A DNA stretch of 24,000 nucleotides, taken from positions 1 through 24,000 of the forward strand of contig JAZKHR010000022.1 of assembly GCA_040385305.1 (NCBI GenBank). The letters run 5' to 3'. This DNA comes from Pseudomonadota bacterium. Its GTDB lineage: Bacteria > Pseudomonadota > Gammaproteobacteria > Xanthomonadales > Xanthomonadaceae. The notes under the pieces were generated by a model. The model saw nothing but the letters and a program-made list of their open reading frames with translations. It did not search any database and was not told where the DNA came from. Shown here in pieces: positions 1,527 to 22,518 of this stretch. Both the position numbers and the translations under genes were made by a program. How positions within the stretch are numbered: the stretch's first letter is position 1; each line of letters starts with the position of its first letter.

Positions 1527-2195
1527 TCAGGCCGGCTCATCCGCCGCTGGCAATGCCACGGAGAACGCGGGCGATGCCATCACATGCCCGTGCACGCAGG
1601 CGAGCCACGCGTCCTGCATCGAGACTTTCCAGCCACCCGTCATCGCGGAAAAGGCCGGCAGTACCAGCCCGCCTTGCTGCAAATGGAACACCGGGAACGA
1701 CGCTCCCAGCGCCTTCAAGCGCACCACGGGATGCACGTGGCCGGAGATGCAGATGCCGGCGTCCCCGGCTTCATGCTCGTGTGAGAAACGGAATGGCCCC
1801 TCAGACAGGCGTTCGGCGATGACCTCGATGTCGAGACCGGCCGCATCCAGCCCGCGATCGTGGTTGCCGAGCACCACGTCGACCGAAATTGGATGGCGGG
1901 TGCGGAACGCGTGCCACGCCTCGCGCCAGCGCGCGACCCCGGCCGTGCCGTGGATGAAGTCGCCCAGCACACGCAGGCGCGTTGCCTGCGTGTGCTCCAG
2001 CAATTCGGACAGCCGCGAAAGATCCGCCTGCGTGCCGCCGGACGGCAGTGCGATGCCGGCCGAGCGGAACACGTCGTCCTTGCCGAGATGCAGGTCCGCG
2101 ATCACCAACAAGCGCCGCCTGGGCCAATGCAGCGCGCGCTGGGCGAACAGCTGGATGGTTTCACCGGCGAGGACGGCGTTGCTGCAGTCGAGCAT
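1527..2195 (-). CDS. pdeM: Ligase-associated DNA damage response metallophosphoesterase/endonuclease PdeM (MPE)
   Basis: Calcineurin-like phosphoesterase motifs appear in order: VIADLHLGKD, VLGDFIHG, LGNHD, SGHVHP. The product is 222 aa. The start ATG 2195 is preceded by GGAGGA with a 6-nt spacer. It is the last gene of the exonuclease-ligase-helicase-PdeM cluster. The 2357 start in the ORF track is an extension into the helicase gene. Confidence 0.85.
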   Translation of the reverse strand: MLDCSNAVLAGETIQLFAQRALHWPRRRLLVIADLHLGKDDVFRSAGIALPSGGTQADLSRLSELLEHTQATRLRVLGDFIHGTAGVARWREAWHAFRTRHPISVDVVLGNHDRGLDAAGLDIEVIAERLSEGPFRFSHEHEAGDAGICISGHVHPVVRLKALGASFPVFHLQQGGLVLPAFSAMTGGWKVSMQDAWLACVHGHVMASPAFSVALPAADEPA

Positions 2196-4668
2196 GCTTG
2201 TCCTCCAGTTTCTCCGCGGTGCGGGCCACGCGCGTCTTCCAGTCCTCGGTGCTGAGTTGCCCGCGCAATGACTCCGCCCACAGCGGAAACGAAAACGGGG
2301 TGAGGCTGGGTGGCAGGCGCAGGTCCGGGCCGCGGGCGCGCAGGGCCAGCAGCGCATCGGTGATGGCCTGCACGTCCAGTTGTTGCTCCATGACTTCGCG
2401 CTGGGCCTGGCCCAGCAGCATGTGGCCGGGATCGTGCTGCTTCAGGACATCGAAGATGAGTCCGCTGGACGCCTGCAACTGGCGCATCGAACGCGGCGCG
2501 CGGCCAGGCAGCGACGGCGGCAGCAGGCCTGCGACCCGCGCAACCTCACGGAACTGCCTGCGCGCGAGCTCCGCCAGGTTCACGCCTTCGAGCAGGTCGT
2601 CCAGCACGTTGGCGGGATCGAGTAACGTCGCCAGCGTGTCGGCATCCATTTCGGTGCGGGCCTGCGCCGAGACCACCAGCCCGTAGTCGTTTGCCGCATA
2701 GCCGAAGGTATTGGGCTGGACCCGGCCCCAGCGCAACGCCAGCAGCGCGGCCAGGCCTTCGTTCACCAGCCTTCCGGCAAAGGTGTAGATGAACAGGTGC
2801 CAGCCATCGCGGGTGCGCAGGAATTCAGCCACGCTGCGGGTCGCCTTCGGCACCTGCGACAGCGCCGCCTGCAGGTCCAGCAGCTCACGCGCATGGCGCA
2901 TTTCCGGTGAGCGCACATCCTCCTCGAGGGTGCGTAGCATCTGCCGGCCGAGCTCGTTGGACAACGGCATGCGCCCGCCCATCCACTTGGGCACACGGCC
3001 ATCGCGCACCTTGGCGATGCGCACGTAGGCGGTCATGTCCTGGATGCGCGCCAGTTCCAGGGTGCGGCCCGCGAACTGGAAGACGTCGCGTGGGCGCAGG
3101 CGCGCGATGAAGCTTTCCTCCACCGACCCCAGCACGCCTCCCTTGAGCAGGCGCACGGTCAGGCTGCCGTCGCTGGTGATGGTGCCGATGTTGAGGCGAT
3201 GGCGCAGCGCGGCACGCCGGTCAAGCATCCGATAGACACCGTCGGCGCCCACCTCGACCCGGCGGAAATCCGGGTAGTGTTCCAGCGCCGCGCCACCGCG
3301 CACGATGAAATCCAGCACCAGCTGGAACTGTTCCCGGGTCAGGTCGCGGAAGCTGTAACTCCCCTGCACTTCCGCCAGCAACGCGTCCGCGGTGAAGCCG
3401 CCGCCCAGCGCGAGGGTCACGCAATGCTGGGCCAGCACGTCCAGCGACAGCCTCGGCACCGGCCGCGATTCGATGTGCCCCGCCAGCAATGCCTGCCGCG
3501 CCGCGGCGTATTCGATGACTTCCAGCGCATGGGTGGGCACGCAGATGATGGCGCCCGCCTCGCCCGGTCGATGCCGCGCGCGACCGGCACGCTGGATCAG
3601 GCGCGCCACGCCTTTCGGGCTGCCGACCTGGAACACCTGGTCCACGGCCGGGAAATCGACGCCCAGGTCGAGGCTGGATGTTGCCACCACGCAGCGCACG
3701 CTGCCGTCGCGCAGACCCTGCTCCGCCTGCGCGCGCAATGCCTGCGACATCGAGCCGTGATGGAGGGCCAGTGTCTCCGGCGCGTCCAGCCACACCGAGG
3801 CCAGCGCCTTGTGCCACAGCTCCGCCTGCGAGCGGGTGTTGGTGAACACGACGCTCGAGCGCGCATCGGCCAGCAGCGCGCTGACCCGCTGCAGCTGGCT
3901 GAGCCCAAGGTGGCCCGCCCAGGGAAAGTGTTCGCCGGCATCGGGCAGCAAGGTGTGAAGGGTGATGGCGCGCTTGGCGGCGCCATCGACGATGCGCGCC
4001 GGCATGCCTGCTGGCAGCAGCGCCGCGGCCGCTTCGTCGAGGTTGCCCAACGTGGCCGAGAGCCCCCAGGTGCGCGCGTCGGGCGCCAATGCCCGCACGC
4101 GTGTCAGCGCCAGCTGCAGGAGAACCCCACGCTTGTTGCCCATCAGTTCGTGCCACTCGTCGACCACGATCCAGCGCAGCCCACCCAGCAGATCCGCGGT
4201 TTCGGGATAGCTCAGCATCAGCGACAGGGATTCCGGCGTGATCACCAGCACTTCGGCCTGGCCAGTTCGCGCCAGGCGCCGGTCGCGCGCGCTCGCATCC
4301 CCAGTGCGCATGGCCACGGTCCACGCAATCTCCAGCGCTTCCAGGGGCTCACGCAACGCACGCACGGTGTCATTCGCCAGCGCACGCAAGGGCGTCACCC
4401 ACAGCACCTGGATGCGCCCTGGCCGCGGCGCCTTGCTGTGCTTGGCGGGCGCGGGGACCGGCGGGGCAGCCAAGGCTTCGATCAGCGCGCCACCAAAGGC
4501 CGCCAGCGTCTTGCCGCTACCGGTGGGAGTCACGATGAGGCCGGACTCGCCCGCCAGCCCGCTTCGCCATGCCGCGCGCTGGAAGGCCGAAGGCGACCAG
4601 CCTCGCGCGCCGAACCACTCGAGCAGGCGAGCGCGCGCGGCGCGCAGGGCGGCGGCGCGCGAACTCAA
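2161..4668 (-). CDS. Ligase-associated DEXH-box (Lhr-type) ATP-dependent helicase
   Basis: SF2 motifs: Walker A TPTGSGKTL (4504-4530), DEWH box (4150-4161), SATLGN, VATSSLDLGVDFP, QRAGRARH. The product is about 835 aa, which fits the Lhr-core size. The start is uncertain. The only plausible initiator before the conserved LLEWFGARGW N-terminus is TTG 4668-4666, overlapping the ligase stop. The 5058 start in the ORF track would overlap the ligase gene by about 390 nt. Confidence 0.85.
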   Translation of the reverse strand: MSSRAAALRAARARLLEWFGARGWSPSAFQRAAWRSGLAGESGLIVTPTGSGKTLAAFGGALIEALAAPPVPAPAKHSKAPRPGRIQVLWVTPLRALANDTVRALREPLEALEIAWTVAMRTGDASARDRRLARTGQAEVLVITPESLSLMLSYPETADLLGGLRWIVVDEWHELMGNKRGVLLQLALTRVRALAPDARTWGLSATLGNLDEAAAALLPAGMPARIVDGAAKRAITLHTLLPDAGEHFPWAGHLGLSQLQRVSALLADARSSVVFTNTRSQAELWHKALASVWLDAPETLALHHGSMSQALRAQAEQGLRDGSVRCVVATSSLDLGVDFPAVDQVFQVGSPKGVARLIQRAGRARHRPGEAGAIICVPTHALEVIEYAAARQALLAGHIESRPVPRLSLDVLAQHCVTLALGGGFTADALLAEVQGSYSFRDLTREQFQLVLDFIVRGGAALEHYPDFRRVEVGADGVYRMLDRRAALRHRLNIGTITSDGSLTVRLLKGGVLGSVEESFIARLRPRDVFQFAGRTLELARIQDMTAYVRIAKVRDGRVPKWMGGRMPLSNELGRQMLRTLEEDVRSPEMRHARELLDLQAALSQVPKATRSVAEFLRTRDGWHLFIYTFAGRLVNEGLAALLALRWGRVQPNTFGYAANDYGLVVSAQARTEMDADTLATLLDPANVLDDLLEGVNLAELARRQFREVARVAGLLPPSLPGRAPRSMRQLQASSGLIFDVLKQHDPGHMLLGQAQREVMEQQLDVQAITDALLALRARGPDLRLPPSLTPFSFPLWAESLRGQLSTEDWKTRVARTAEKLEDKHARLQQRRPRR

Positions 4669-6266
4669 GCGGCCATGTCCGCAAGCGTGGCCAGCACATC
4701 GGCATCTGCGGCTGTCTTGTCGGTGCGCCAGCGCAGGATGCGCGGGAAGCGGGTGGCGATACCGGACTTGTGGCGGCTGGATTTGTTGACCGCCTCGAAG
4801 CCGAGTTCGAACACCAGCTCGGGCGCCACCGAGCGCACCGGCCCGAACCGCTCCCGGGTATGTGCGCGGATCCAGCGGTCGAGCTTGAGGATCTCCGCAT
4901 CGGCGAGGCCCGAATAGGCCTTCGCCACCGGTACCAAGCGGTCGCCATCCCAGAGCGCAAACGTGTAGTCCGTGTAGAGATTGCTGCGGCGGCCATGGCC
5001 GGCCTGCGCGTAGACCAGCACCGCGTCGATGGTCATCGGCTCGACCTTCCACTTCCACCAGTCGCCGCGCTTGCGGCCGCCAACGTAGGCGGAACTCGCG
5101 CGCTTGAGCATCAAACCCTCGACGCCGCGCATGCGCGCCTCTTCGCGCAGGACTGCGGCGCTGGACCAGTCAGGCACTTCGACACGATCGGAGAGTTGCA
5201 GCGCAGGATGCCCCTGCCGTGCGACCAGTGCCTCCAGCTGGGCACGTCGCGCATGCAACGGGTGACCGCGCAGGTCCTGGCCGTCGAGTTCGAGCAGGTC
5301 GTAGGCAACCAGCGCCACCGGGGTGTCGGCCAACACCTTGGGACCCGGCTTGCGGCGCTGGATGCGGGTCTGCAGCGCGCCGAACGGACGTGGTTGGTTC
5401 GCGGTGCCATCCCACGCCAGCAGTTCGCCATCAAGCACGCACGGCGGCAGTAGCGCGGCCATGGCTTCCACTTCCGGGAAGCGGCCATCCAGCCGTTCCT
5501 CGCCTCGCGACCACAGCGCGATCTCGCCCTGGCGATGGATCAGCTGCATGCGAATGCCGTCCCACTTCCACTCGAGCAACCATGCATCGATGTCGCCCAG
5601 CGCAGGCGGCTCGCCGTCGAGTGGCGAGGCCAGCTGGAACGCGTACGGGGAACTTGCATCGCCAGGCTGGACTTCGTGCGACAGCAGCTGCCCGGCGAAC
5701 GCCGCGGTGGGCTCCCAGTTGCCGAGCAGACGCTGCGCGATCACCGCCACTTCGAGCCCGGAGACCTCGGCCAGGGCCTGCTGCACCAGCCCCTGCGATA
5801 CACCCACCCGCAGGCTTCCGGTCAGCAGCTTGTTGAACACCAGCCGTTCTGCCTCGCCCAGGCCATCCCACGCCTCGACCATCACCGCGCGCCGGACCGA
5901 TGGCTCCGCGTTGGCCACCGGCCACAACACGCCTGTGATCCAGTCCGCCAGCCCCCGCTCCGCGGCTGCATGCGTGGGCGGCGGCAGCAACAGCGTCAGC
6001 GTTTCCGCCAGGTCCCCCACGTGGTGGTAACTCTCTTCCACCAGCCATGCGGGGTTGCCGGAGACCTCACCCACCCACTCGCGAAGCTCGCCGGTGGTGG
6101 CCAGCTTGCGGCGCGCGCCGCCGACCTTGCCGCCCGACAGCAGGTGGATGGCCCACGCGAGGTCGTCCGCCGGACACGCGCGGAAGTACTCCACGAGCGC
6201 GCGCCGGCGGTCACTGGTGGCGGTCAGGCGGTCCAGCCGCTGGTACAGCTCCGCGAAGCGACGCAT
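4665..6266 (-). CDS. ATP-dependent DNA ligase (ligase-associated damage response type)
   Basis: Nucleotidyltransferase motifs appear in order: motif I EWKWDGIR (KWDG at 5556-5567), motif III CVLDGELLAW, motif IV EGLMLKR, motif V DWWKWK. An N-terminal DNA-binding-like region is present. The product is 533 aa. Start ATG 6266 overlaps the exonuclease stop by 1 nt (TGATG). Confidence 0.9.
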   Translation of the reverse strand: MRRFAELYQRLDRLTATSDRRRALVEYFRACPADDLAWAIHLLSGGKVGGARRKLATTGELREWVGEVSGNPAWLVEESYHHVGDLAETLTLLLPPPTHAAAERGLADWITGVLWPVANAEPSVRRAVMVEAWDGLGEAERLVFNKLLTGSLRVGVSQGLVQQALAEVSGLEVAVIAQRLLGNWEPTAAFAGQLLSHEVQPGDASSPYAFQLASPLDGEPPALGDIDAWLLEWKWDGIRMQLIHRQGEIALWSRGEERLDGRFPEVEAMAALLPPCVLDGELLAWDGTANQPRPFGALQTRIQRRKPGPKVLADTPVALVAYDLLELDGQDLRGHPLHARRAQLEALVARQGHPALQLSDRVEVPDWSSAAVLREEARMRGVEGLMLKRASSAYVGGRKRGDWWKWKVEPMTIDAVLVYAQAGHGRRSNLYTDYTFALWDGDRLVPVAKAYSGLADAEILKLDRWIRAHTRERFGPVRSVAPELVFELGFEAVNKSSRHKSGIATRFPRILRWRTDKTAADADVLATLADMAA

Positions 6267-7255
6267 CAGTCGTCCTCGCCGAACTCGGTATTGAAGGTGC
6301 CGGTGGCGATGCCTTCCTCGTTGAGCGCGCGCACCAGCGCATCGGTGTTGCCATGGGTGGCGATGACACGCTTCGCGCCGGTCTCGCGTACGGTGCGCAG
6401 CAGGTCCGGCCAATCGGCATGGTCGGACACCACGAACCCGCGATCATAGTTGCGGCGCCGACGGTTCCCCCGCACGCGCATCCATCCGGAGGCAAAGCCA
6501 TGCTGGGCGCCGCGGAACCTGCGCACCCAGGTGCTGCCCGCGGCGGACGGCGGTGCCAGCACCAGTTGCCCGGCGAAGTCCGCGCCCTTCGGCGTGTCCG
6601 AGACCTTGAGCGTGTCGATCATGCGGATGCCAGCGGCGCGATAGACCTCGACGCCGGTGGCAATCGCCCCGTGCACGTAGACGGGGCCATCCATGCATGC
6701 GTCCAGCTCGGCCAGCAGGCGCTGCGATTTGCCCAGCCCATAGCAGTACAGGATCGCGGCGTTGCCTTCGCGCGCGCATTCCTCGCGCCATGCCGCGATT
6801 TCGCGTGCCACTTGCGCGGTGTCCGGCCAACGGTACACGGGCAGCCCGAACGTGGCTTCGGTGACAAAGGTGTCGCAGGGAACCACCTCGAATGGCGCGC
6901 AGGTCGGATCGGGGTTTCGCTTGTAGTCGCCCGACACCACCCAGACTTCGCCGCCATGCTCGATGCGCACCTGGGCCGAGCCGAGCACATGCCCGGCCGG
7001 GTGCAGCGACACCGTGGTGTCGCCCAGCGGGAAGCGATCGCCGTAGGCGTGCGCGTGGTAGTCCTGCTCGCCCAGTCGCCATTGCAGGATCGGCAGGCCC
7101 TCGCGCGTGGTGTGGTACTCGCCCATGCCGACACGGGCGTGATCCCCGTGGCCATGGGTGATCACCGCGCGCGGCACGGGCCGCCACGGGTCGATGAAGA
7201 AGTCGCCCGCGGCGCAATGCATGCCTTCCGGACGCACGGTGACCAGGTCCCGCAT
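6266..7255 (-). CDS. Ligase-associated DNA damage response exonuclease (metallo-beta-lactamase fold)
   Basis: MBL motif HGHGDH (7139-7156) lies within AVITHGHGDHARVG. The product is 329 aa. It is the first gene of the 4-gene minus-strand operon. GAGG lies about 10 nt upstream of ATG 7255. Confidence 0.85.
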   Translation of the reverse strand: MRDLVTVRPEGMHCAAGDFFIDPWRPVPRAVITHGHGDHARVGMGEYHTTREGLPILQWRLGEQDYHAHAYGDRFPLGDTTVSLHPAGHVLGSAQVRIEHGGEVWVVSGDYKRNPDPTCAPFEVVPCDTFVTEATFGLPVYRWPDTAQVAREIAAWREECAREGNAAILYCYGLGKSQRLLAELDACMDGPVYVHGAIATGVEVYRAAGIRMIDTLKVSDTPKGADFAGQLVLAPPSAAGSTWVRRFRGAQHGFASGWMRVRGNRRRRNYDRGFVVSDHADWPDLLRTVRETGAKRVIATHGNTDALVRALNEEGIATGTFNTEFGEDD

Positions 7256-7407
7256 GCTGCGATTGCCTCGGTTTGGCCCAACGGTGTATGGGCCGCGCAG
7301 GCGCCCTGCAAGGCACCGCGAAACCCGTTTCAGCTATATGAACGAATCAGGGGTGAATACCCCGTCGCCATCGCACGCGGTGCGACACGCTTCGAGACAA
7401 TGGCGGC
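7256..7407. promoter_or_regulatory. 152-bp divergent control region shared by the LADDR operon (-) and the radical SAM/UDG operon (+)
   Basis: This is the only non-coding DNA between the two divergent first genes. It holds the locally AT-richest patch of the block (7329-7350) and three short inverted repeats: GGCCCA-N8-TGGGCC (7275-7294), TTCA-N6-TGAA (7329-7342) and TCGCAC-GCG-GTGCGA (7371-7385). I could not assign clear -35/-10 hexamers. Confidence 0.45.
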
Positions 7408-8664
7408 ATGGAACTCACCCGCAAATTGCAGGTCCTCGCCGATGCGGCGAAATACGACGCCTCGTGCGCGTCCAGTGGCGCCGACAAGCGCAATTCAAGC
7501 AAGACCGGCGGCATCGGCAGCACCGAGGGCATGGGCATCTGCCACAGCTACACGCCGGATGGCCGTTGCGTCAGCCTGCTCAAGATCCTGCTGACGAATT
7601 TCTGCATCTTCGACTGCGCCTACTGTGTCAACAGGGTGTCCAGCAACGTGCAGCGCGCGCGCTTCACGCCCGAAGAAGTGGTGCGGCTGACCATGGACTT
7701 CTACAAGCGCAACTACATCGAGGGCCTGTTCCTCTCCAGCGGCATCATCCGCAATAGCGACTACACCATGGAGCAGCTGGTGCAGGTCGCCCGCAGCCTG
7801 CGCGAAGACCACAAGTTCGCCGGCTATATCCACCTCAAGACCATTCCCGATGCCGCGCCCGAACTGCTCGCGGCCGCCGGCAAGTACGCAGACCGCCTCA
7901 GCATCAACGTGGAGTTGCCGACCGAAGCCGGTCTGGCCAAATTCGCGCCGGAGAAGACCCTGCCTGGCATCCGCGGGGCGATGGGCGAACTGCGCTGGCG
8001 CATCGAGGAAGCCAAGGAGGCGCGCCGCGCGACACCCGCGACCGGCACACGCAAGGCGAAGCCGCCGCGCTTCGCGCCCGCTGGTCAAAGCACGCAGATG
8101 ATCGTGGGCGCCGATGGCGCCAGCGACCGCGAGATCCTGCGCGCCAGCGACAACCTGTATGGCAATTACCGGTTGCGGCGCGTGTACTACTCCGCCTTCA
8201 GCCCCATCCCGGATGCCTCCACGCACCTGCCTTTGGTTGCGCCACCGCTGCAGCGCGAACACCGGCTGTACCAGGCCGACTGGCTCCTGCGCTTCTACGA
8301 ATTCAAGGTGGAGGAAATCGCCAGCGACAGCGCCGACGGCATGCTGGATCTCGACATCGATCCAAAGCTGGCGTGGGCGCTGCGCAATCCCGACGCCTTC
8401 CCGGTTGACCTCAACAAGGCGCCCAAGGAAAAGCTGCTGCGTGTGCCGGGCCTTGGCACGCGCAACGTCAAGCGCGTGCTGATGGCGCGCCGCCACGGCG
8501 GGCTGCGGATTGCCGACATGGCCCGCCTGCGCGCACCCATCGCCAAGCTGCTGCCCTTCGTGCAGCTGCTGGACCACCATCCGCGCCAGCGCCTGGACGA
8601 TCCGGTGGCGCTGCGCGCCCAGCTGGCGCCGAAGCCGCGGCAGGCGGACCTGTTCGCCGCGTGA
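7408..8664 (+). CDS. Putative DNA modification/repair radical SAM protein
   Basis: CxxxCxxC cluster motif CIFDCAYC (7603-7626). The N-terminus is MELTRKLQVLADAAKYDASCASSG. A C-terminal helix-hairpin-helix-like segment LLRVPGLGTRNVKRVL lies at about 8434-8481. The product is 418 aa. It is followed after 10 nt by the DUF4130-UDG gene, which matches the known conserved pairing of this radical SAM family. Confidence 0.85.
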   Translation: MELTRKLQVLADAAKYDASCASSGADKRNSSKTGGIGSTEGMGICHSYTPDGRCVSLLKILLTNFCIFDCAYCVNRVSSNVQRARFTPEEVVRLTMDFYKRNYIEGLFLSSGIIRNSDYTMEQLVQVARSLREDHKFAGYIHLKTIPDAAPELLAAAGKYADRLSINVELPTEAGLAKFAPEKTLPGIRGAMGELRWRIEEAKEARRATPATGTRKAKPPRFAPAGQSTQMIVGADGASDREILRASDNLYGNYRLRRVYYSAFSPIPDASTHLPLVAPPLQREHRLYQADWLLRFYEFKVEEIASDSADGMLDLDIDPKLAWALRNPDAFPVDLNKAPKEKLLRVPGLGTRNVKRVLMARRHGGLRIADMARLRAPIAKLLPFVQLLDHHPRQRLDDPVALRAQLAPKPRQADLFAA

Positions 8665-8674
8665 GACCGCTTCG

Positions 8675-10099
8675 ATGAGCCGATGGTCGGCGGCCGTTGA
8701 CCCGCCGTGGGATCTGCAAGCGTGGCGTGGCTTGGCGCGCGCGGCGCTCTGTGCGGAAGTCGCGCCGCACGACATCGACTGGACCGGCGCGGATCAAGGC
8801 AGCCTGCTGGGGTTGCCTGCGGTCGCCAACGCGCCCGTCCTGCATGCCTCGCCGCGCGTGCCTGCGACGCTGCTGCAACTCGCGGACAGCGTGCTCTGCC
8901 ATCGCGATCCCGGCGGCGCAGGCCTGCTGTATCGCCTGCTGTGGCGCACCACCCACGGCGAGCCGCGCGTGCTTGGCAATCCGGCGGATCCGGACACCCA
9001 TCGCGCCCATGCGCTGGCCCAGGCCGTGCGCCGCGACAGCCACAAGATGAAGGCGTTCGTGCGCTTCCGCGAAGTACCGGGGCAGGAAGACCATTTCGTG
9101 GCGTGGTTCGAGCCGGAACACTTCATCGTCGACCGGGTGGCGCCGTTCTTCGCCCGCCGCTTCGCGGGCATGCATTGGGCGATCCTGACGCCGTATCGCA
9201 GTGCCGCATGGGATCGCGAGGCGCTGGTGTTCGGTGCAGGCGCGGACCGCAGCCAGGCGCCGACAGAAGATGCCGGCGAAGACCTGTGGCGCACCTACTA
9301 CGCCAACATCTTCAACCCGGCGCGGATCAACCCGCGGATGATGCGCCAGGAGATGCCGCAGCGTTACTGGAAGCATCTGCCGGAAGCGCAGCTGATCCCC
9401 GGCCTGTTGCGCGATGCCGGTGCCCGCGTGGCGGCGATGGATGCACGGCCGGCCGAGCCCGCGCGGCGCCGCATTCCGGCACCGCTTCCCGATCCAGCAC
9501 CCGCGCTGCTGCATGGCCTGCCCGCGCTGCGCACTGCCGCGCGCGAATGCCGCGCCTGTCCGCTGTGGGAACCGGCCACGCAGACCGTATTCGGCGAAGG
9601 GCCGCAGGATGCCCGCATCATGCTGGTGGGCGAACAACCCGGCGATGCCGAAGACTTGAGCGGGCGGCCGTTCGTGGGACCGGCGGGCAAGTTGCTGGAC
9701 CAGGCGCTGGCACAGGCCGGCATCGCGCGAGACGCGCTGTACCTCACCAACGCGGTCAAGCATTTCCGCTTCGAGCAACGCGGCAAGCGGCGACTGCATC
9801 GCAACCCGGATGCAGCGCATGTGTTGGCCTGCAGTACCTGGCTGGCGCAGGAAACCGCCATCGTGCAGCCGCGCGCCATCGTGTGCCTGGGCGCCACCGC
9901 TGCACGCGCCGTGTTCGGGCCTGGCTTTGCGCTGATGCAGGAACGCGGCCGCTGGCGCACCCGCGACGACGGCACGCGCGCCATGGCCACCGTGCATCCC
10001 GCATGGGTCCTGCGCCAGACGGGAGAGGCCCGCGAGGCCGGCTACCGCCTGCTGGTCGCGGACCTTGCCCTGCTGCGTGAAACAGACGCGGCGCCCTGA
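8675..10099 (+). CDS. DUF4130 (probable DNA metabolism protein) fused to a UdgX-like family-4 uracil-DNA glycosylase domain
   Basis: The N-terminal half has DUF4130-like signatures (HKMKAFVRFREV..HFVAWFEPEHFIVDRVAPFFARRFAGMHWAILTP). The C-terminal half has ECRACPLW (Fe-S Cys pair), motif A IMLVGEQPGDAEDLSGRPFVGPAGKLL (GEQPGD at 9629-9646), the insertion GKRRLH (KRRLH at 9785-9799) and motif B ATVHPAWVLR. I chose start ATG 8675, 10 nt after the radical SAM stop. The 8510 start in the ORF track would overlap the radical SAM gene by 155 nt. Confidence 0.85.
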   Translation: MSRWSAAVDPPWDLQAWRGLARAALCAEVAPHDIDWTGADQGSLLGLPAVANAPVLHASPRVPATLLQLADSVLCHRDPGGAGLLYRLLWRTTHGEPRVLGNPADPDTHRAHALAQAVRRDSHKMKAFVRFREVPGQEDHFVAWFEPEHFIVDRVAPFFARRFAGMHWAILTPYRSAAWDREALVFGAGADRSQAPTEDAGEDLWRTYYANIFNPARINPRMMRQEMPQRYWKHLPEAQLIPGLLRDAGARVAAMDARPAEPARRRIPAPLPDPAPALLHGLPALRTAARECRACPLWEPATQTVFGEGPQDARIMLVGEQPGDAEDLSGRPFVGPAGKLLDQALAQAGIARDALYLTNAVKHFRFEQRGKRRLHRNPDAAHVLACSTWLAQETAIVQPRAIVCLGATAARAVFGPGFALMQERGRWRTRDDGTRAMATVHPAWVLRQTGEAREAGYRLLVADLALLRETDAAP

Positions 10100-10132: not shown

Positions 10133-12220
<2,088 letters not shown>

Positions 12221-12255
12221 GATGTTTCCTCTAGGTGTGTTCCCGGCAGGGCCGG

Positions 12256-12858
12256 TCAAAGCATTTCGCTGCGGGCCTGCTCGGCGCGGCTGGCGCCAAT
12301 CGCGGTTTCAACGTTCCTCTTCTCCTCGGGCGGCGGCAGGACGGCCGGCATGCCCAGGCTCTCGATCCACAGCTCCCGGCACCAGCCGGCGTTGTGGTAG
12401 AGGTGGTGATCCTCGTCTTCCTCGACTTCCTCGTGCGCGGCCTTCAGCGCCTTGCCGTCCGCCCCCGTGGCCGTCTCGGCGACGCGACCGAGCAGTTCCC
12501 AATTGCTGTGGTCCTTGGTTTCGGCCAGCAGCACGCATTCGCAGGCCACCAGCTGGGCACCTGCCTTGTCGGCCTTGGCCTTGGCCAACTCCATCGCCTG
12601 CACCAGGGACTTGCCGTTGTGGGCGACCACCTCGCGACCCGGCGTGCTCGCGTTCGGATCCAGGCCAAAATGGGCGAAGAGTCCCAGCACGACCTCCTGG
12701 TGGTGGCGGGTCTCTTCCAGGTATTCCTGCCATTCCTTCTTCAGGTCGGCGTTGACGGCGCAGCTGATGGCGGTGATGTATATCTGCTCGCCGCCGAGTT
12801 CGGTCTCGAGCATCTGGTACAACAGTTCAACCAGCTGTGCCTTGTCATAAGTGGCCAT
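12256..12858 (-). CDS. Ferritin-like/four-helix-bundle di-iron-type domain protein, co-oriented with katE
   Basis: The product is 200 aa from ATG 12858, with GGAG 9 nt upstream. Paired acidic/His motifs (LETELGGEQIY, YLEETRHHQ, ECVLLAETKDH, EEVEEDEDHHLYH) are spaced as in ferritin-like bundles. Its stop lies 35 nt upstream of the katE start. The family assignment is by pattern only. Confidence 0.6.
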   Translation of the reverse strand: MATYDKAQLVELLYQMLETELGGEQIYITAISCAVNADLKKEWQEYLEETRHHQEVVLGLFAHFGLDPNASTPGREVVAHNGKSLVQAMELAKAKADKAGAQLVACECVLLAETKDHSNWELLGRVAETATGADGKALKAAHEEVEEDEDHHLYHNAGWCRELWIESLGMPAVLPPPEEKRNVETAIGASRAEQARSEML

Positions 12859-12960: not shown

Positions 12961-14166
12961 ATGGACCTCAAGAGTGGTTACCCGTTCTGGGCTGTCAAGA
13001 ATGGCCTGATGCAGGCCTTCCCGAAGCTGGAAGACGACGTGAAATGCGACGTCGCGATCATCGGCGCCGGCATCACCGGCGCACTGATCGCGGATGAACT
13101 TGCCGGCCACGGCCACGAGGTCTGCGTGCTCGACCAGCGCGACGTCGGTTGGGGCAGCACCAGCGCCAGCACAGCGCTGCTGCAGTACGAGATCGACACC
13201 CACATGGTCGACCTGGCCAAGGACTACGGGGAGGCCGATGCCGTCCTCGCCTACCGGGCCTGCGCCGATGCCATCGACCTGCTGGCCGGGAAAGCCGCCG
13301 AAGTCCGCGATGTCGATTTCGCCCGCATGCGCAGCCTGTACTACGCCAGCAAGCGCAGGCATCGCAGCGACCTTGCGGAGGAATTCGCGATGCGCTCGCG
13401 CCACGGGTTCGCGGTCGAATGGCTGGAGCCGCAACAGGTGCGCGAGGCCTACGGTTTCGACGCGCCCTGCGCGATCCTCAGCGAGAAGGCAGCGCGCATC
13501 GATCCATATCGCATGGCCCATCGCCTGCTGGAGCGATGGCAGCGTGCCGGCGTCCATGTGCATGACCGCACGCCGGTGACCCGCATCGCCGCCAATGCGA
13601 GGGGCGTCGAGCTGGAAACCGCCGGCGGCGCCCGTATCCGCGCCAGATACCTGGTGATGGCTGCGGGCTACGCCGGCCAGAAGTTCCTGCGCAAGGACGT
13701 GGCCAAGAACCGCAGCAGCTACGCCTTCATCACCGATCCCATCAACCCCGCCCTGCTCGGTCCGCTCAACGACACCATGGTCTGGGAATCAGCGCGGCCA
13801 TACCTGTACATGCGCACCACCGGCGACGGCCGCCTGCTGATCGGCGGCGAGGACGACAACATCGACATCGCGTCCAAGCGCGATGCCCAGGTGGACGCCA
13901 AGGCCCGCAAGCTGGCCAAGCAGGTGTCCAAGCTGTTCCCGCACCTGCCGGTGGAGCCTGCGTTCGCGTGGGCCGGCACCTTCGCCGAGACCAAGGACGG
14001 CCTGCCGTGGTTCGGTGCCCACAAGCAACACGGGCCCCGGGTGCTGTTCGCGATGGCCTACGGCGGCAACGGGATTTCCTATTCCATGCTCGGCGCGGGC
14101 CTGCTGCGGGCGGCGATCGAACGTCGCAAGCATCCGCTCGCCCGCCTGTTCGGCTTCGAACGCTGA
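12961..14166 (+). CDS. FAD-dependent oxidoreductase (DAO/glycine-oxidase-like family)
   Basis: N-terminal Rossmann dinucleotide fold CDVAIIGAGITGALIADELAGHGHEVCVLDQ. The product is 401 aa, and the C-terminal GGNGISYS segment is typical of DAO-family enzymes. The substrate cannot be inferred. Confidence 0.8.
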   Translation: MDLKSGYPFWAVKNGLMQAFPKLEDDVKCDVAIIGAGITGALIADELAGHGHEVCVLDQRDVGWGSTSASTALLQYEIDTHMVDLAKDYGEADAVLAYRACADAIDLLAGKAAEVRDVDFARMRSLYYASKRRHRSDLAEEFAMRSRHGFAVEWLEPQQVREAYGFDAPCAILSEKAARIDPYRMAHRLLERWQRAGVHVHDRTPVTRIAANARGVELETAGGARIRARYLVMAAGYAGQKFLRKDVAKNRSSYAFITDPINPALLGPLNDTMVWESARPYLYMRTTGDGRLLIGGEDDNIDIASKRDAQVDAKARKLAKQVSKLFPHLPVEPAFAWAGTFAETKDGLPWFGAHKQHGPRVLFAMAYGGNGISYSMLGAGLLRAAIERRKHPLARLFGFER

Positions 14167-19109: not shown

Positions 19110-19961
19110 ATGACCAAAACGCGCCTGCTGGCCGCGCTGATCATGGCGCCCATCGCCATCCTGTCCGTCCTGTTCGTATCCACCCCGGTGCTGGCCGCGC
19201 TCAGCGCCCTGCTGTTCCTGGCCGCGCTGTGGGAATGGTTGAAGCTGGCCGATGTCGAGGACACCCTGGCCCGCACCATCCTGCTGGCCTGCAACCTGGC
19301 GCTGATGGTCGCCCTGGTGTGGGGCTCGCGTACCGCCATCGGCGGGTCGTTCGCGCTGCTGCAGCTGGTGATCGTGATCGGCGTGGCCTGGTGGTTGCTG
19401 TCGATCCTGTGGATGCGGCACTACCACTTCGCTTCCGACCACGACAGCCACGCGCGCGCATTCAAGCTCGCCGCCGGAACCCTTGCCGTGGTCCCGGCGT
19501 GGTGCGCCCTGGGGTTCATCCATGCCAGCCAGCCGGACGGCCACAAGTGGCTGCTGCTGGCGCTGTTCCTGGTCTGGGCGGCGGACACCGGCGCTTACTT
19601 CGCAGGCCGGAAATTCGGCGGCAAGCTGTTCGGCGGGCGCAAGCTGGCGCCGCGGATCAGCCCCAACAAGACCATCGAGGGCCTGCTCGGCGGCATGCTG
19701 CTCGCGTTGGCGGTGGCCATCGCTGGCGCGCTGCTGATCGGCGCAAGCGTGGCGCAGCTGCCGGCGATCGGCGCGGTGGCGCTGGTCACCGTGGTGTTCT
19801 CGGTGGTCGGCGACCTGTTCGAAAGCATGCTCAAGCGCCACGTCGGCGCCAAGGATTCGGGCGACCTGATTCCCGGCCACGGTGGCGTGCTGGATCGCAT
19901 CGACAGCGTGCTCGCCGCGTTGCCGGTGTTCGCCCTCGGCAAGGCATGGCTGGGATTCTAG
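19110..19961 (+). CDS. cdsA: Phosphatidate cytidylyltransferase (CDP-diglyceride synthase)
   Basis: It is a multi-TM protein with the CdsA signature [28 protein letters not shown]. The product is 283 aa and occupies the conserved position after uppS. Confidence 0.93.
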
Positions 19962-19972
19962 GCGCGGTGCAC

Positions 19973-21166
19973 ATGCAACGCGTCGCAGTCCTCGGAGCCA
20001 CCGGCTCGATCGGCGCGTCAGCGCTGGACGTGATCGCGCGGCATCCTGACCGCCTGCGGGCCCACGTGCTGGCTGCCGGCAGCCAAGTCGAGGCGCTGGT
20101 CGAACTGTGCCGCCAGCACGCGCCGCGGCATGCGGTGGTCGCCGACCCGTCCGGTTTCCCAGCCCTGCGCGATGGCCTGGCCCAGGCGGGACTCGACACC
20201 CAGCCGCACGCCGGCGCCGATGCGCTGGACGAACTGGTGTCAGGCGATGCCTGCGACACCGTGGTTGCCGCCATCGTCGGTGCTGCCGGGCTGGCTTCCA
20301 CGCTGGCTGCCGCCCGCGCCGGCAAGCGACTGTTGCTGGCCAACAAGGAATCGATGGTGCTGGCCGGCGAGCTGCTGATGCGGGCCGCGCAGGCCGGTGG
20401 CGCCGTCGTGGTGCCGATCGACAGCGAACACAATGCGATTCACCAATGCCTGGCCGGCTGCGACGACCGCGCCGCGCTGGCGCGGATCACCCTTACCGCG
20501 TCCGGCGGACCGTTCCGGGGCCACGACCGGGCCGCCTTGGCCGAGGTCACCCCTGCGCAAGCCGTGGCCCACCCCAAGTGGTCGATGGGACCGAAGATCT
20601 CGGTGGATTCCGCGACCCTGATGAACAAGGGCCTCGAGGTCATCGAAGCCCACCACCTGTTCGGCCTGCCCGGCGAGCGCATCGGTGTGCTGGTGCATCC
20701 GCAATCGCTGGTGCATTCGCTGGTGGATTTCATCGATGGCAGCACCCTTGCCCAGCTCGGCCTGCCGGACATGCGCACGGCGCTGGCAGTCGGCTTCGGC
20801 TGGCCGGGGCGGATTTCCTCCGGAGTGGCACCGCTGGACCTGCTGGCCCAGGGCGGACGACTGGAGTTCGAGGCGCCCGACGTCGATGCCTTCCCTTGCC
20901 TCGCCCTCGCGTATCGCGCGCTTGACGCAGGCGGCACCGTCCCCGCCATGCTCAATGCGGCCAACGAAGAGGCCGTTTCAGCCTTTCTTCAGGGGCGCAT
21001 AGGCTTCCTGTCCATCCCCGACACCGTCGCAGCCACCCTGGACGCGTTGCCCGCGCAGCCCGCCGAATCGATCGAGGCGCTGCTTGAGGCCGACGGCCGC
21101 GCGCGTCGGCTTGCCCGGGAACGTATCGCCTCCCTCGCCTCCGCACGGACCCGCACCCTCGCATGA
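19973..21166 (+). CDS. dxr: 1-deoxy-D-xylulose 5-phosphate reductoisomerase
   Basis: [20 protein letters not shown] (NADPH-binding GxTGSIG), [22 protein letters not shown] and [27 protein letters not shown] are present. The product is 397 aa from ATG 19973 (GTG 19967 is also possible). The 19229 start in the ORF track runs through cdsA in another frame. Confidence 0.94.
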
Positions 21167-22518
21167 GCACGTTCCTCGGATCGCTGTGGTGGATGCTGGT
21201 CGCGCTCGGCGTGCTGGTGACCTTCCACGAATTCGGCCACTTCTGGGTCGCGCGCCGCTGCGGCGTCAGGGTCCAGCGGTTCTCGGTGGGCTTCGGGCGC
21301 GCCCTGTGGTCGCGGCGCGGCAAGGACGGCACCGAGTACGTGCTGGCCGCCCTGCCACTCGGCGGCTACGTGAAGATGCTGGACGAGCGCGAGGGCGACG
21401 TCGCTCCCGCGGACGCGCCTTTCGCCTTCAACCGGCAATCGGTATGGAAGCGCATCGCGATCGTGGCCGCCGGTCCGCTGGCCAACATTTTGCTGGCCAT
21501 CGCCCTGCTCTGGGCGATGCTGGTGGTGGGGCGACCCGACTACGCCCCGGTGGTCGGCAAGGCCCAGGGGATTGCCGAACAGGCCGGCCTGCAGGCGGGC
21601 GACATCATCCAGTCGGTCGGTGGCCGCGACACCCCCACCTGGAGCGAGGCGGCGATGGCCTTGAGCGTGGCCGCGCTGGATCGTCAGCCGGTGGAACTGC
21701 AGGTGCGGCGCGCCGATGGCAGCGCGCAATCCCGCACGTTGCCGTTCCAGCGCATGCCGGCGGAATTCGACGAAACCCGCGCACTCGAGGCAGCGGGCCT
21801 GACCCCGCGGCATTTCCTGCTGCCACCGGTCGTTGGCAAGGTCAGCGAGGGCCTCCCGGCCTGGGGCGTGCTGGCCGAAGGGGACCGCATCACCGCCATC
21901 GATGCCGCGCCGGTGGCCAGCTTCGACCAGATCGCACCACTGGTGCAGGCGTTGGGCGAACGCGGCGGGTCCGGCATGGTCGAGGTCCTGCGCGATGGCG
22001 AGCGGCTGGCGCTGGAACTCACGCCGCTGCAGCGCGAGAACCCGGACGGCAGCCGGAGCTGGCTGCTGGGTGTGGGTAATGGCGCCAGCCAGCCCCCCGT
22101 GCACGATGCGGTACTGCGCTACAACCCCCTGGCGGCGCTCCCGGCGGCGGTATCCCAAGCCTGGCAGTTGGGCTCCGATTCAGTCGGAATGCTCTGGCGG
22201 ATGCTGAATGGCAGCGCCTCGGTGCAGAATGTGTCCGGCCCGATCACCATCGCGCAGTACGCCAATGCGTCCGCGCAGCTGGGCTTGGCCTGGTTCCTGA
22301 ACTTCCTTGCCCTGCTCTCGGTCAGTCTGGCGATCATCAACCTCCTGCCCGTTCCCGTCTTGGACGGGGGTCACCTGCTGTATTACCTTATCGAACTGGC
22401 CACGGGCCGCCCGCTGGGCGAACGCGCCATGGCCGTTGGCCAGTACCTCGGCCTCGCGTTCATCGCGGGGCTGATGGGACTGGCCTTCTACAACGACATC
22501 CTGCACCTGGTGTCGTGA
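21163..22518 (+). CDS. rseP: RIP zinc metalloprotease RseP (site-2 protease)
   Basis: [11 protein letters not shown] (HExxH), a central PDZ-like region ([13 protein letters not shown]) and the C-terminal [12 protein letters not shown] motif are present. The ATG overlaps the dxr stop (ATGA). The product is 451 aa. Confidence 0.93.

Follow-up and report, generated by a model that had tools for sequence, protein, structure and literature searches.

A radical SAM and DUF4130::UdgX gene pair in a Xanthomonadaceae contig is a typical copy of a widespread DNA damage response module

The uracil-binding protein UdgX of Mycobacterium smegmatis (MsmUdgX) belongs to the uracil-DNA glycosylase (UDG) superfamily, and the bond that its His109 forms with C1' of the abasic sugar is irreversible (PMC10359453). 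Complexes of UdgX with DNA are tolerated in a RecA-dependent manner (PMC4787834), and the literature acknowledges that its role in the cell has yet to be settled (PMC10359453). An association of UDG domains with DUF4130 and radical SAM proteins was noted in comparative genomics in 2013, and the radical SAM partner was then called 'SplB-like' by Aravind and colleagues (PMC3765255). In Alphaproteobacteria, Verrucomicrobia and Bacteroidetes, the corresponding COG1573-COG4277 operon is under the control of LexA (PMC8565304). Expression of the radical SAM and TIGR03915 genes of Acinetobacter baumannii depends on the WYL activator DdaA (PMC12392091), and a 2026 preprint presents an AlphaFold3-predicted complex of DUF4130 with the radical SAM protein (ipSAE 0.80, interface of 3,666 Å2) and still calls the function unknown (bioRxiv 10.64898/2026.08.19.745780). 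Here we analyse a stretch of 24,000 nucleotides from a member of the Xanthomonadaceae (positions 1 to 24,000 of contig JAZKHR010000022.1, assembly GCA_040385305.1; hereafter the window), in which an initial annotation, made from the letters alone, had recognised a radical SAM gene followed by a gene that joins a DUF4130-like half to a UdgX-like half. There is hardly any doubt that this locus is an orthologous and intact copy of the widespread two-gene COG4277-COG1573 module of the DNA damage response.

The first gene of the pair ends with a stop codon at 8662-8664, which is followed on the same strand by a spacer of 10 nt and the ATG at 8675 of the second gene. The radical SAM protein scores 557.8 bits with the hidden Markov model (HMM) TIGR03916, well above the cut-off of 343.5, and it matches Pfam Radical_SAM with E=2.8e-08. 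The TIGR03916 family is found in about one fifth of prokaryotic genomes. Sequence identity of the radical SAM protein is about 80% across the Lysobacteraceae and 56-81% across phyla, and the cysteines C66, C70 and C73 of the cluster-binding motif are invariant in the family alignments. For the second gene, a longer open reading frame (ORF) from TTG 8510 exists; since homologues of the fusion protein begin at the same MSRW as ATG 8675, this ATG was taken as the start. The closest database relative of the resulting protein is 93% identical and likewise has 474 residues. The N-terminal half had been assigned to DUF4130 by the initial annotation, and the HMM search bears this out, with TIGR03915 at 220.4 bits (cut-off 112.25) and Pfam DUF4130 (PF13566) at E=1.8e-44 and 151.8 bits (cut-off 27); the invariant DUF4130 motif RDxHKMKAFVRFR is present as well. 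The C-terminal half is matched by TIGR03914 ('UdgX family uracil-DNA binding protein') at aa 240-466 with 286.5 bits (cut-off 189.95) and by Pfam UDG with E=9.2e-36. All three TIGR models are thus above their cut-offs, and the window has the same gene order and the same fusion as the catalogued TIGR03916/TIGR03915/TIGR03914 set. The motif positions and the 10-nt spacer read from the letters alone (CIFDCAYC, GEQPGD, KRRLH and the VPGLG segment) are all correct.

The initial annotation had further proposed that the UDG half is not an ordinary family-4 enzyme but of the UdgX type, and that the histidine of its KRRLH element corresponds to the crosslinking histidine of MsmUdgX. Both points hold. 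In phmmer searches against the PDB, the chains of MsmUdgX come first with E ~4e-55, whereas the family-4 UDG 1ui0 follows at 2.9e-33. Foldseek searches with an AlphaFold2 (AF2) model of the fusion found exclusively UDG-superfamily or UDG-containing proteins, and the top 30 matches are all UdgX structures, with target TM-scores of 0.82-0.91, about 50% identity and root-mean-square deviations of 1.9-2.8 Å. The MsmUdgX structures 6AIL, 6AJO, 6IO9 and 6IOD have about 50% identity over 196 aligned columns at a target TM-score of ~0.85, and the Thermus thermophilus family-4 enzyme UDGA (1UI0) has the same fold and Fe-S cluster and a similar TM-score (~0.85) with only 37% identity. 1UI0 has motif A in the form GE(A/G)PG and lacks the R-loop insertion, unlike the window protein. 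The form GEQPG distinguishes motif A of UdgX from the GE(A/G)PG of ordinary family 4 (PMC10359453).

The R-loop GKRRLH aligns with GKRRIH of MsmUdgX column for column and without gaps, which places H375 on the crosslinking His109; the loops are homologous. The residues E320, Q321, D324, D327, N359, K362, R373, H375, H441, R447 and the Fe-S cysteines are all present and aligned, and every MsmUdgX residue with experimentally established importance is conserved, namely E52, Q53, D56, D59, F65, N91, K94, R107, H109, H178, R184 and the cysteines (PMC10359453, PMC10776899, PMC4787834). Shared elements thus comprise GEQPG(D), GKRR(I/L)H with the nucleophilic histidine, HPxxxLR, the equivalents of N91, K94, D59 and F65, and the cysteines, of which C292, C295 and C386 align with C24, C27 and C120; a C27 mutant of MsmUdgX is inactive (PMC4787834). 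The differences are few: K110 is replaced by arginine, motif B reads HPAW instead of HPSS, and C404 stands where MsmUdgX has a leucine. The more obvious difference is one of architecture, as MsmUdgX is a standalone protein, whereas the window domain forms the C-terminal third of a 474-aa DUF4130 fusion that is encoded in a radical SAM operon. Judged by this alignment, the fusion carries every residue that MsmUdgX needs for uracil excision and for covalent capture of the abasic sugar, and an SDS- and heat-stable adduct of the fusion with uracil-containing DNA would be predicted from the conservation of these residues.

This covalent-trap signature is by no means confined to the window. A word-indexed search returned at least about 8000 homologues of the fusion; every one of the best 120 combines DUF4130 with UDG, and many of them, from Luteimonas, Thermomonas, Xanthomonas and Stenotrophomonas, bear the NCBI name 'UdgX family uracil-DNA binding protein'. 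When the UDG domain alone was used with HMMER, 967 clusters (at 50% identity) were found at E<=1e-30. Of these 967, the best 150 include 58 of at least 420 aa, 67 of at most 300 aa and 25 of intermediate length; 80 of the 150 have a DUF4130 half as judged by similarity to the N-terminal half of the window protein, and 115 contain GEQPG together with G[KRQ]xRxH, fused and standalone proteins alike. At least 593 species were matched in a scan across GTDB, and the 80 loci that were retrieved comprise 34 with fused and 46 with standalone UdgX, spanning Proteobacteria, Acidobacteriota, Verrucomicrobiota, Actinomycetota and Myxococcota. No variation was seen at the positions equivalent to His109, R107, E52, N91, H178 and R184 in 34/34 fused and 46/46 standalone proteins, nor at that of P179 in motif B, with the limit that motif A and TNAVKHF served as search patterns in GTDB and their conservation in the 80 loci is therefore circular, whereas the R-loop and motif B are independent of these patterns. 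The cysteines equivalent to C24, C27 and C120 are likewise invariant in the 80 loci, except for one truncated fused match that is gapped at C24/C27, and the trap residues are also invariant in 44 fusions from Lysobacteraceae. Such invariance points to purifying selection that acts on the crosslinking chemistry of the fused proteins. The initial annotation had presented the signature as something that this locus carries in particular; the residues are indeed there, but to go by the family alignments the signature is a defining rule of all TIGR03914 proteins, fused or not, and nothing special to this locus.

The fused and the standalone proteins differ in their genomic linkage, which is all-or-none with respect to the radical SAM gene. 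DUF4130 lies directly upstream of the UDG domain in 34 of the 80 loci, in 33 of these within a single ORF, and arrangements of three separate genes were not found among the 80. A collinear radical SAM gene is immediately upstream of fused UdgX in 30 of 31 informative loci, the sole informative fused locus without a detectable upstream radical SAM gene being that of Bradyrhizobium sp. C9 (L080). Clustering of the genes around 29 fused loci gave no recurrent partner beyond lineage synteny. The pair of radical SAM gene and fusion is also annotated on 145-164 plasmids and chromids. In Sphingomonas and relatives (L034, L046, L052, L082), the two genes are separated by an extra gene of about 160 aa, and its product is a hemerythrin HHE domain protein (PF01814, E ~1e-17 in the two that were tested, L082 and L052).

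The relatives of the operon also bear the marks of damage regulation. No more than 100 nt from the start codon of the radical SAM gene, and often at -18, 15 of 17 alphaproteobacterial loci have an exact GAAC-N7-GAAC or GTTC-N7-GTTC box, with a background of 0.035 such boxes per kb, and in Variovorax a perfect CTGT-N8-ACAG overlaps the radical SAM start. These LexA-type boxes confirm the published membership in the SOS regulon, which the initial annotation does not mention. In Acinetobacter, the DdaA motif CGTCACTTCATGACG is found about 105 nt upstream of the operon (L146, position 3396); the A. baumannii operon, which belongs to the DNA-damage gene set (PMC12392091), consists of an orthologous radical SAM gene (51% identity) followed by DUF4130 and has no UdgX domain. 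In the 152-nt intergenic region 7256-7407 of the window, TTAG-N6-TACTA (with up to 2 mismatches) and CTGT-N8-ACAG (with up to 1 mismatch) were not found, and reading the same region revealed no LexA box of the alphaproteobacterial type.

What could be the use of an enzyme that binds its product irreversibly and is encoded next to a radical SAM protein? The best explanation that we can offer agrees with the initial annotation in that the crosslink would purposefully position the radical SAM and DUF4130 proteins on DNA. The UdgX domain would flip and excise uracil, which is expected to build up in damage-exposed single-stranded DNA, and His375 would bond to C1' of the sugar, whereby the abasic site would be capped. 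By way of the flexible linker of about 45 residues and of the interface between DUF4130 and the radical SAM protein, the crosslink would then immobilise the radical SAM/helix-hairpin-helix (HhH) enzyme on the same DNA, where that enzyme could carry out 5'-deoxyadenosyl-radical chemistry on a DNA substrate near the adduct. If the crosslink and the predicted complex both form, the radical SAM/HhH enzyme must be held on the same DNA. The strict conservation of the trap residues in the fusions and their obligate linkage to a radical SAM gene, both read from sequences, suggest such a tether. We regard the mechanism as physically plausible and as tentative, with prospects somewhat short of even, and the explanation as a whole, i.e. 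the identity of the module together with its mechanism, as about equally likely to be right or wrong.

Several observations weigh against this tether. Neither a radical SAM nor a DUF4130 gene lies within 10 kb of UdgX in any of 43 informative standalone loci. The standalone form, with 46 of the 80 sampled species, is no rarer than the fusion, and it is also the form of mycobacterial UdgX, which has no such neighbours within 8 kb and is the only UdgX that has ever been assayed. As UdgX occurs without these partners, the trap must have a function that is independent of the radical SAM and DUF4130 proteins. Conversely, radical SAM-DUF4130 pairs without any UDG are found in Pusillibacter (annotated as such), Acinetobacter and Lachnospiraceae, and therefore the substrate of the radical SAM enzyme cannot depend on a UdgX tether. 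Since the pair exists without UDG and UdgX exists alone, the core of the module is, by its gene distribution, the pair of radical SAM protein and DUF4130, and UdgX is an accessory domain that is fused in some lineages and free elsewhere. A suicide tether would moreover use up one whole complex per uracil, and there is no published biochemistry for any fused protein or TIGR03916 enzyme. Damage regulation of the window operon itself is suggested by analogy only. Finally, the AF2 model of the radical SAM protein, which was based on an alignment of 40 sequences with about 80% identity, reached a predicted local distance difference test (pLDDT) value of only 49.9 and is unusable, and without a usable model no geometry backs the idea that its active site reaches the tethered site.

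The same distribution is the chief strength of the main rival explanation, in which UdgX and the radical SAM-DUF4130 pair have independent activities. UdgX would remove uracil at single-stranded gaps or stalled forks and shield the sugar until recombination or proteolysis, i.e. it would be an abasic cap like HMCES/YedK, while the radical SAM-DUF4130 pair would repair some other lesion, and the fusion would merely serve co-regulation or co-localisation. SRAP proteins such as HMCES/YedK resemble UdgX in their covalent abasic-site adduct, in their occurrence in SOS and translesion contexts and in a proposed shielding role; they differ in having an unrelated fold, in forming a Cys2 thiazolidine instead of a His-C1' bond, and in not excising a base. 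Standalone UdgX without partners, including that of mycobacteria, and UDG-less pairs are accounted for better by independent activities than by the tether. The RecA-dependent tolerance of UdgX-DNA complexes would also fit, and five standalone UdgX genes (L019, L061, L067, L068, L075) lie beside a gene for an imuB-like Y-family polymerase and dnaE2, i.e. an SOS mutagenesis cassette, two of them (L061, L068) with LexA boxes of the GTTC-N7-GTTC type. This explanation has more difficulty with the fusion partner, because DUF4130 is the predicted binder of the radical SAM protein, so that a crosslink would immobilise the radical SAM enzyme in any case, and with a linkage (30 of 31 fused loci) that is stronger than co-regulation usually produces. 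On balance, we consider independent activities rather unlikely.

The adduct could also concern the radical SAM enzyme directly. In one version, UdgX would be a uracil-triggered covalent anchor, and the adduct itself would be the substrate or the obligatory positioning device of radical SAM-DUF4130, which would process or reverse it by radical chemistry. This is distinctly unlikely; if it were true, it would be the first case of a radical-SAM-dependent resolution of a programmed DNA-protein crosslink and would give the 'suicide' chemistry of UdgX a physiological rationale. In a narrower version, which we consider improbable, radical SAM-DUF4130 would abstract a hydrogen from the adducted sugar and thereby free His375 or cut the strand. 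In its favour are the obligate linkage of fused UdgX to the radical SAM gene, a His-C1' bond that is otherwise irreversible (PMC10359453) and the flexible linker, which would hold the adduct within reach. However, the pair is widespread without UdgX, and reversal can therefore be neither its ancestral nor its general function; organisms with standalone UdgX show no such partner nearby, and there is no chemical precedent.

Conventional base excision repair (BER), in which the UDG domain of the fusion would turn over as an ordinary uracil glycosylase, is very improbable. The operon has been called a 'putative UDG-based BER system' (PMC8565304), and an activity 'corresponding to its class' was reported for the UdgX homologue Bll3023 of Bradyrhizobium, which may be either fused or standalone (PMC5449639). 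The crosslinking histidine, its dyad partner E52, Q53 and R107 are nevertheless all invariant in the fusions, and turnover of MsmUdgX has been seen only when His109 was mutated (PMC4787834, PMC10359453). A role in phage defence, by crosslinking to phage DNA that contains uracil, can be regarded as next to negligible. All that speaks for it is the reasoning that a covalent binder specific for uracil would block phages with U-DNA, and the toxicity of UdgX in ung- cells (PMC5449639). PADLOC models match neither protein, the operon lies outside a defence-island context, it belongs to LexA or DdaA DNA-repair regulons alongside recA and uvrA (PMC8565304, PMC12392091), and the UDG domains among the phage matches listed are all of the ordinary family-4 kind, at 41% identity or less.

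As to novelty, the initial annotation had described the set as catalogued and functionally undefined, and this agrees with the NCBIfam models and with the wording of the 2026 preprint. The finding as such is already known: the family models have been catalogued for years, the Prokaryotic Genome Annotation Pipeline (PGAP) uses the UdgX name, SOS control has been published, and the locus is a typical orthologue. The biochemical work on UdgX is silent on the radical SAM and DUF4130 partners. In the searchable literature, we found no paper that names both 'UdgX' and 'radical SAM', and this gap is probably explained by the standalone status of mycobacterial UdgX, on which all published biochemistry and structures are based. 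The interest lies in the unsolved biochemistry of the radical SAM/UdgX set, to which the window locus adds little leverage, but the invariant trap in the fusions, the all-or-none linkage and the damage regulation in several lineages together give a sharper hypothesis that can be tested. Minor new observations are the linkage statistics, a palindrome at -37, a set of invariant Cys/His residues in the N-terminal part of the radical SAM protein, and the hemerythrin insertion in Sphingomonas.

Of the sites known from relatives, the region before the radical SAM gene of the window has neither a LexA-type box nor a DdaA site; it has the palindrome TCGCA-N5-TGCGA instead. The pattern TC[GT]CA-N5-TG[CA]GA occurs at -37 to -39 in the window, in the related metagenomic loci L085 and L117 and in three Xanthomonas species, in Rudaea with one mismatch, and variants are present in L086, L087 and L100. 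It was located at 7447-7461 in L005, 7560-7574 in L007 and 7695-7709 in L008, and about 38 nt before the start at 1686 in L006. In 157 kb of these loci there are 6 copies of the strict motif, all of them at this site, and the flanks are unalignable between Xanthomonadales loci. The palindrome is a candidate operator of the operon. Its architecture resembles that of the DdaA site (Acinetobacter consensus CGWCA-N5-TGWCG), which we take as a lead: the A. baumannii site CGTCA-N5-TGACG and the window palindrome are both of the 5-N5-5 type with inner CA...TG, while the half-sites differ. The LysR regulator that is encoded upstream in Xanthomonas was considered as the binder and is unsupported for the window clade, which lacks this gene. 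A scan for promoters and terminators detected nothing. Another short element in the otherwise divergent intergenic region is a conserved 19-mer, TTTCAG[CG]TAT[AC]TGAAC[CG]AA, at 7328-7346, about 73 nt from the start of the divergent exonuclease gene and about 80 nt from that of the radical SAM gene, which is present only in the clade with an adjacent ligase operon. A metagenome scan for a regulon of this 19-mer gave 55 exact matches, of which 2 are orthologous loci and the rest chance matches in low-GC sequence, so that further members of a regulon did not come to light.

In the radical SAM protein, C20, C45-H46 and C54, which lie N-terminal to the CX3CX2C motif, are shared by all of 27 sequences that span several phyla, and these residues may form a second (auxiliary) cluster or metal site. 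The HhH-like character that the initial annotation had given to the C-terminal segment finds mixed support. Pfam HHH_3 matches with E=9.5e-4 and 19.7 bits, which is under its cut-off of 27 bits, whereas a profile of 22 diverse family members matches the ComEA HhH domains 2duy and 8dss in the PDB (E=0.0065 and 0.013), and P347, G348 and G350 are invariant; the HhH assignment is thus weakly supported at the sequence level. Sequence and profile searches of the PDB found no solved relative beyond the cluster-motif region of HydE/HydG and the HhH domains of ComEA/RuvA. SplB (COG1533), to which the partner had been likened, is also a radical SAM protein that is presumed to act on DNA, and it is SOS-regulated in several phyla. 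NCBIfam and PDB profile searches revealed no similarity to SPL beyond CX3CX2C, however, and SPL has neither a DUF4130 partner nor a ComEA-like HhH tail, so that 'SplB-like' is a functional analogy at best.

The AF2 model of the fusion has a mean pLDDT of 80.5 and both domains are predicted confidently (about 90 for aa 1-198), while the whole-chain predicted TM-score (pTM) is only 0.46. The linker falls below a pLDDT of 50 at aa 259-274 and corresponds to length-variable, gapped columns in the alignment of the 44 Lysobacteraceae fusions. For DUF4130, no relative in the PDB was found by sequence search or by Foldseek. Its C-terminal end (aa 199-238, 9269-9388) with the pattern LWRTYYANIFNPARxNPRMMRQEMPxxYWKxLPEA is among the most conserved parts of the protein, and the same end is low in the AF2 model, where pLDDT stays under 50 at aa 199-218 and averages about 36-54 per block over aa 201-240. 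This part of the model would be compatible with a segment that may fold only on binding to the radical SAM protein or to DNA.

Table 1. Coordinates of the operon, its domains and motifs, and the neighbouring repair genes in the window
Feature	Position	Strand	Remarks
Radical SAM ORF	7408-8664	+	418 aa; TIGR03916 family
N-terminal segment of radical SAM protein, aa 20-54 (C20, C45-H46, C54)	7465-7569	+	alignment
CX3CX2C motif CIFDCAYC (C66, C70, C73)	7603-7626	+	binds radical SAM [4Fe-4S] cluster; read from sequence
HhH-like C-terminal segment of radical SAM protein, aa 332-365	8401-8502	+	VPGLG at aa 346-350; HHH_3, profile
Fusion ORF: DUF4130/TIGR03915, linker, UdgX-type family-4 UDG	8675-10099	+	one 474-aa polypeptide
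DUF4130/TIGR03915 domain, aa 13-238	8711-9388	+	HMM
Inter-domain linker, aa 239-281	9389-9517	+	predicted flexible; AF2, alignment gaps
UdgX-type UDG domain, aa 282-467	9518-10075	+	phmmer, Foldseek, TIGR03914
Fe-S cysteines C292, C295 (CRAC)	9548-9559	+	alignment with MsmUdgX
Motif A GEQPGD, aa 319-324	9629-9646	+	aligns with 51-GEQPG-55 plus D56 of MsmUdgX
R-loop GKRRLH	9782-9799	+	KRRLH at 9785-9799 (aa 371-375), preceded by G370
Candidate further Fe-S ligand C386	9830-9832	+	alignment with MsmUdgX
Candidate further Fe-S ligand C404	9884-9886	+	MsmUdgX has Leu here
Motif B HPAWVLR (H441...R447)	9995-10015	+	equivalent to 178-HPSSLLR-184
Palindrome TCGCA-N5-TGCGA, 15 nt	7371-7385		candidate operator, 37 nt before radical SAM start
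Ligase-associated DNA damage response operon	1527-7255	-	four genes, divergent from radical SAM operon
Exonuclease TIGR04122	6266-7255	-	
ATP-dependent ligase TIGR04120	4665-6413	-	ORF
Lhr-type DEXH helicase TIGR04121	2161-5058	-	ORF
PdeM TIGR04123	1527-2357	-	ORF

The ligase-associated operon (Table 1) is also adjacent in L085, L086, L087 and L100, and in L117, a short contig, as far as the exonuclease and ligase genes are concerned; this adjacency is absent from 80 other genomes, including those of Xanthomonas and Rudaea. A general association of the ligase operon with the module was rejected, as its adjacency is confined to the closest, Thermomonas-like clade. On the other side, a large-subunit catalase gene (10133-12259, minus strand) is convergent with the operon, and a gene for an FAD-dependent oxidoreductase (12961-14166, plus strand) lies just beyond. 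On plasmid 1 of Paracoccus denitrificans (L088), an FAD oxidoreductase and a 64%-identical catalase are encoded 2-4 kb downstream of the operon. A catalase was not seen beside the operon in 80 genome loci, and this neighbourhood may be a coincidence. Housekeeping genes flank the whole region, with tsf on one side (457-1425) and dxr and rseP on the other (19229-22518). In Proteobacteria, tsf, dxr and rseP usually form one conserved cluster; in the window, the repair genes, the catalase gene and the oxidoreductase gene sit between tsf and dxr/rseP.

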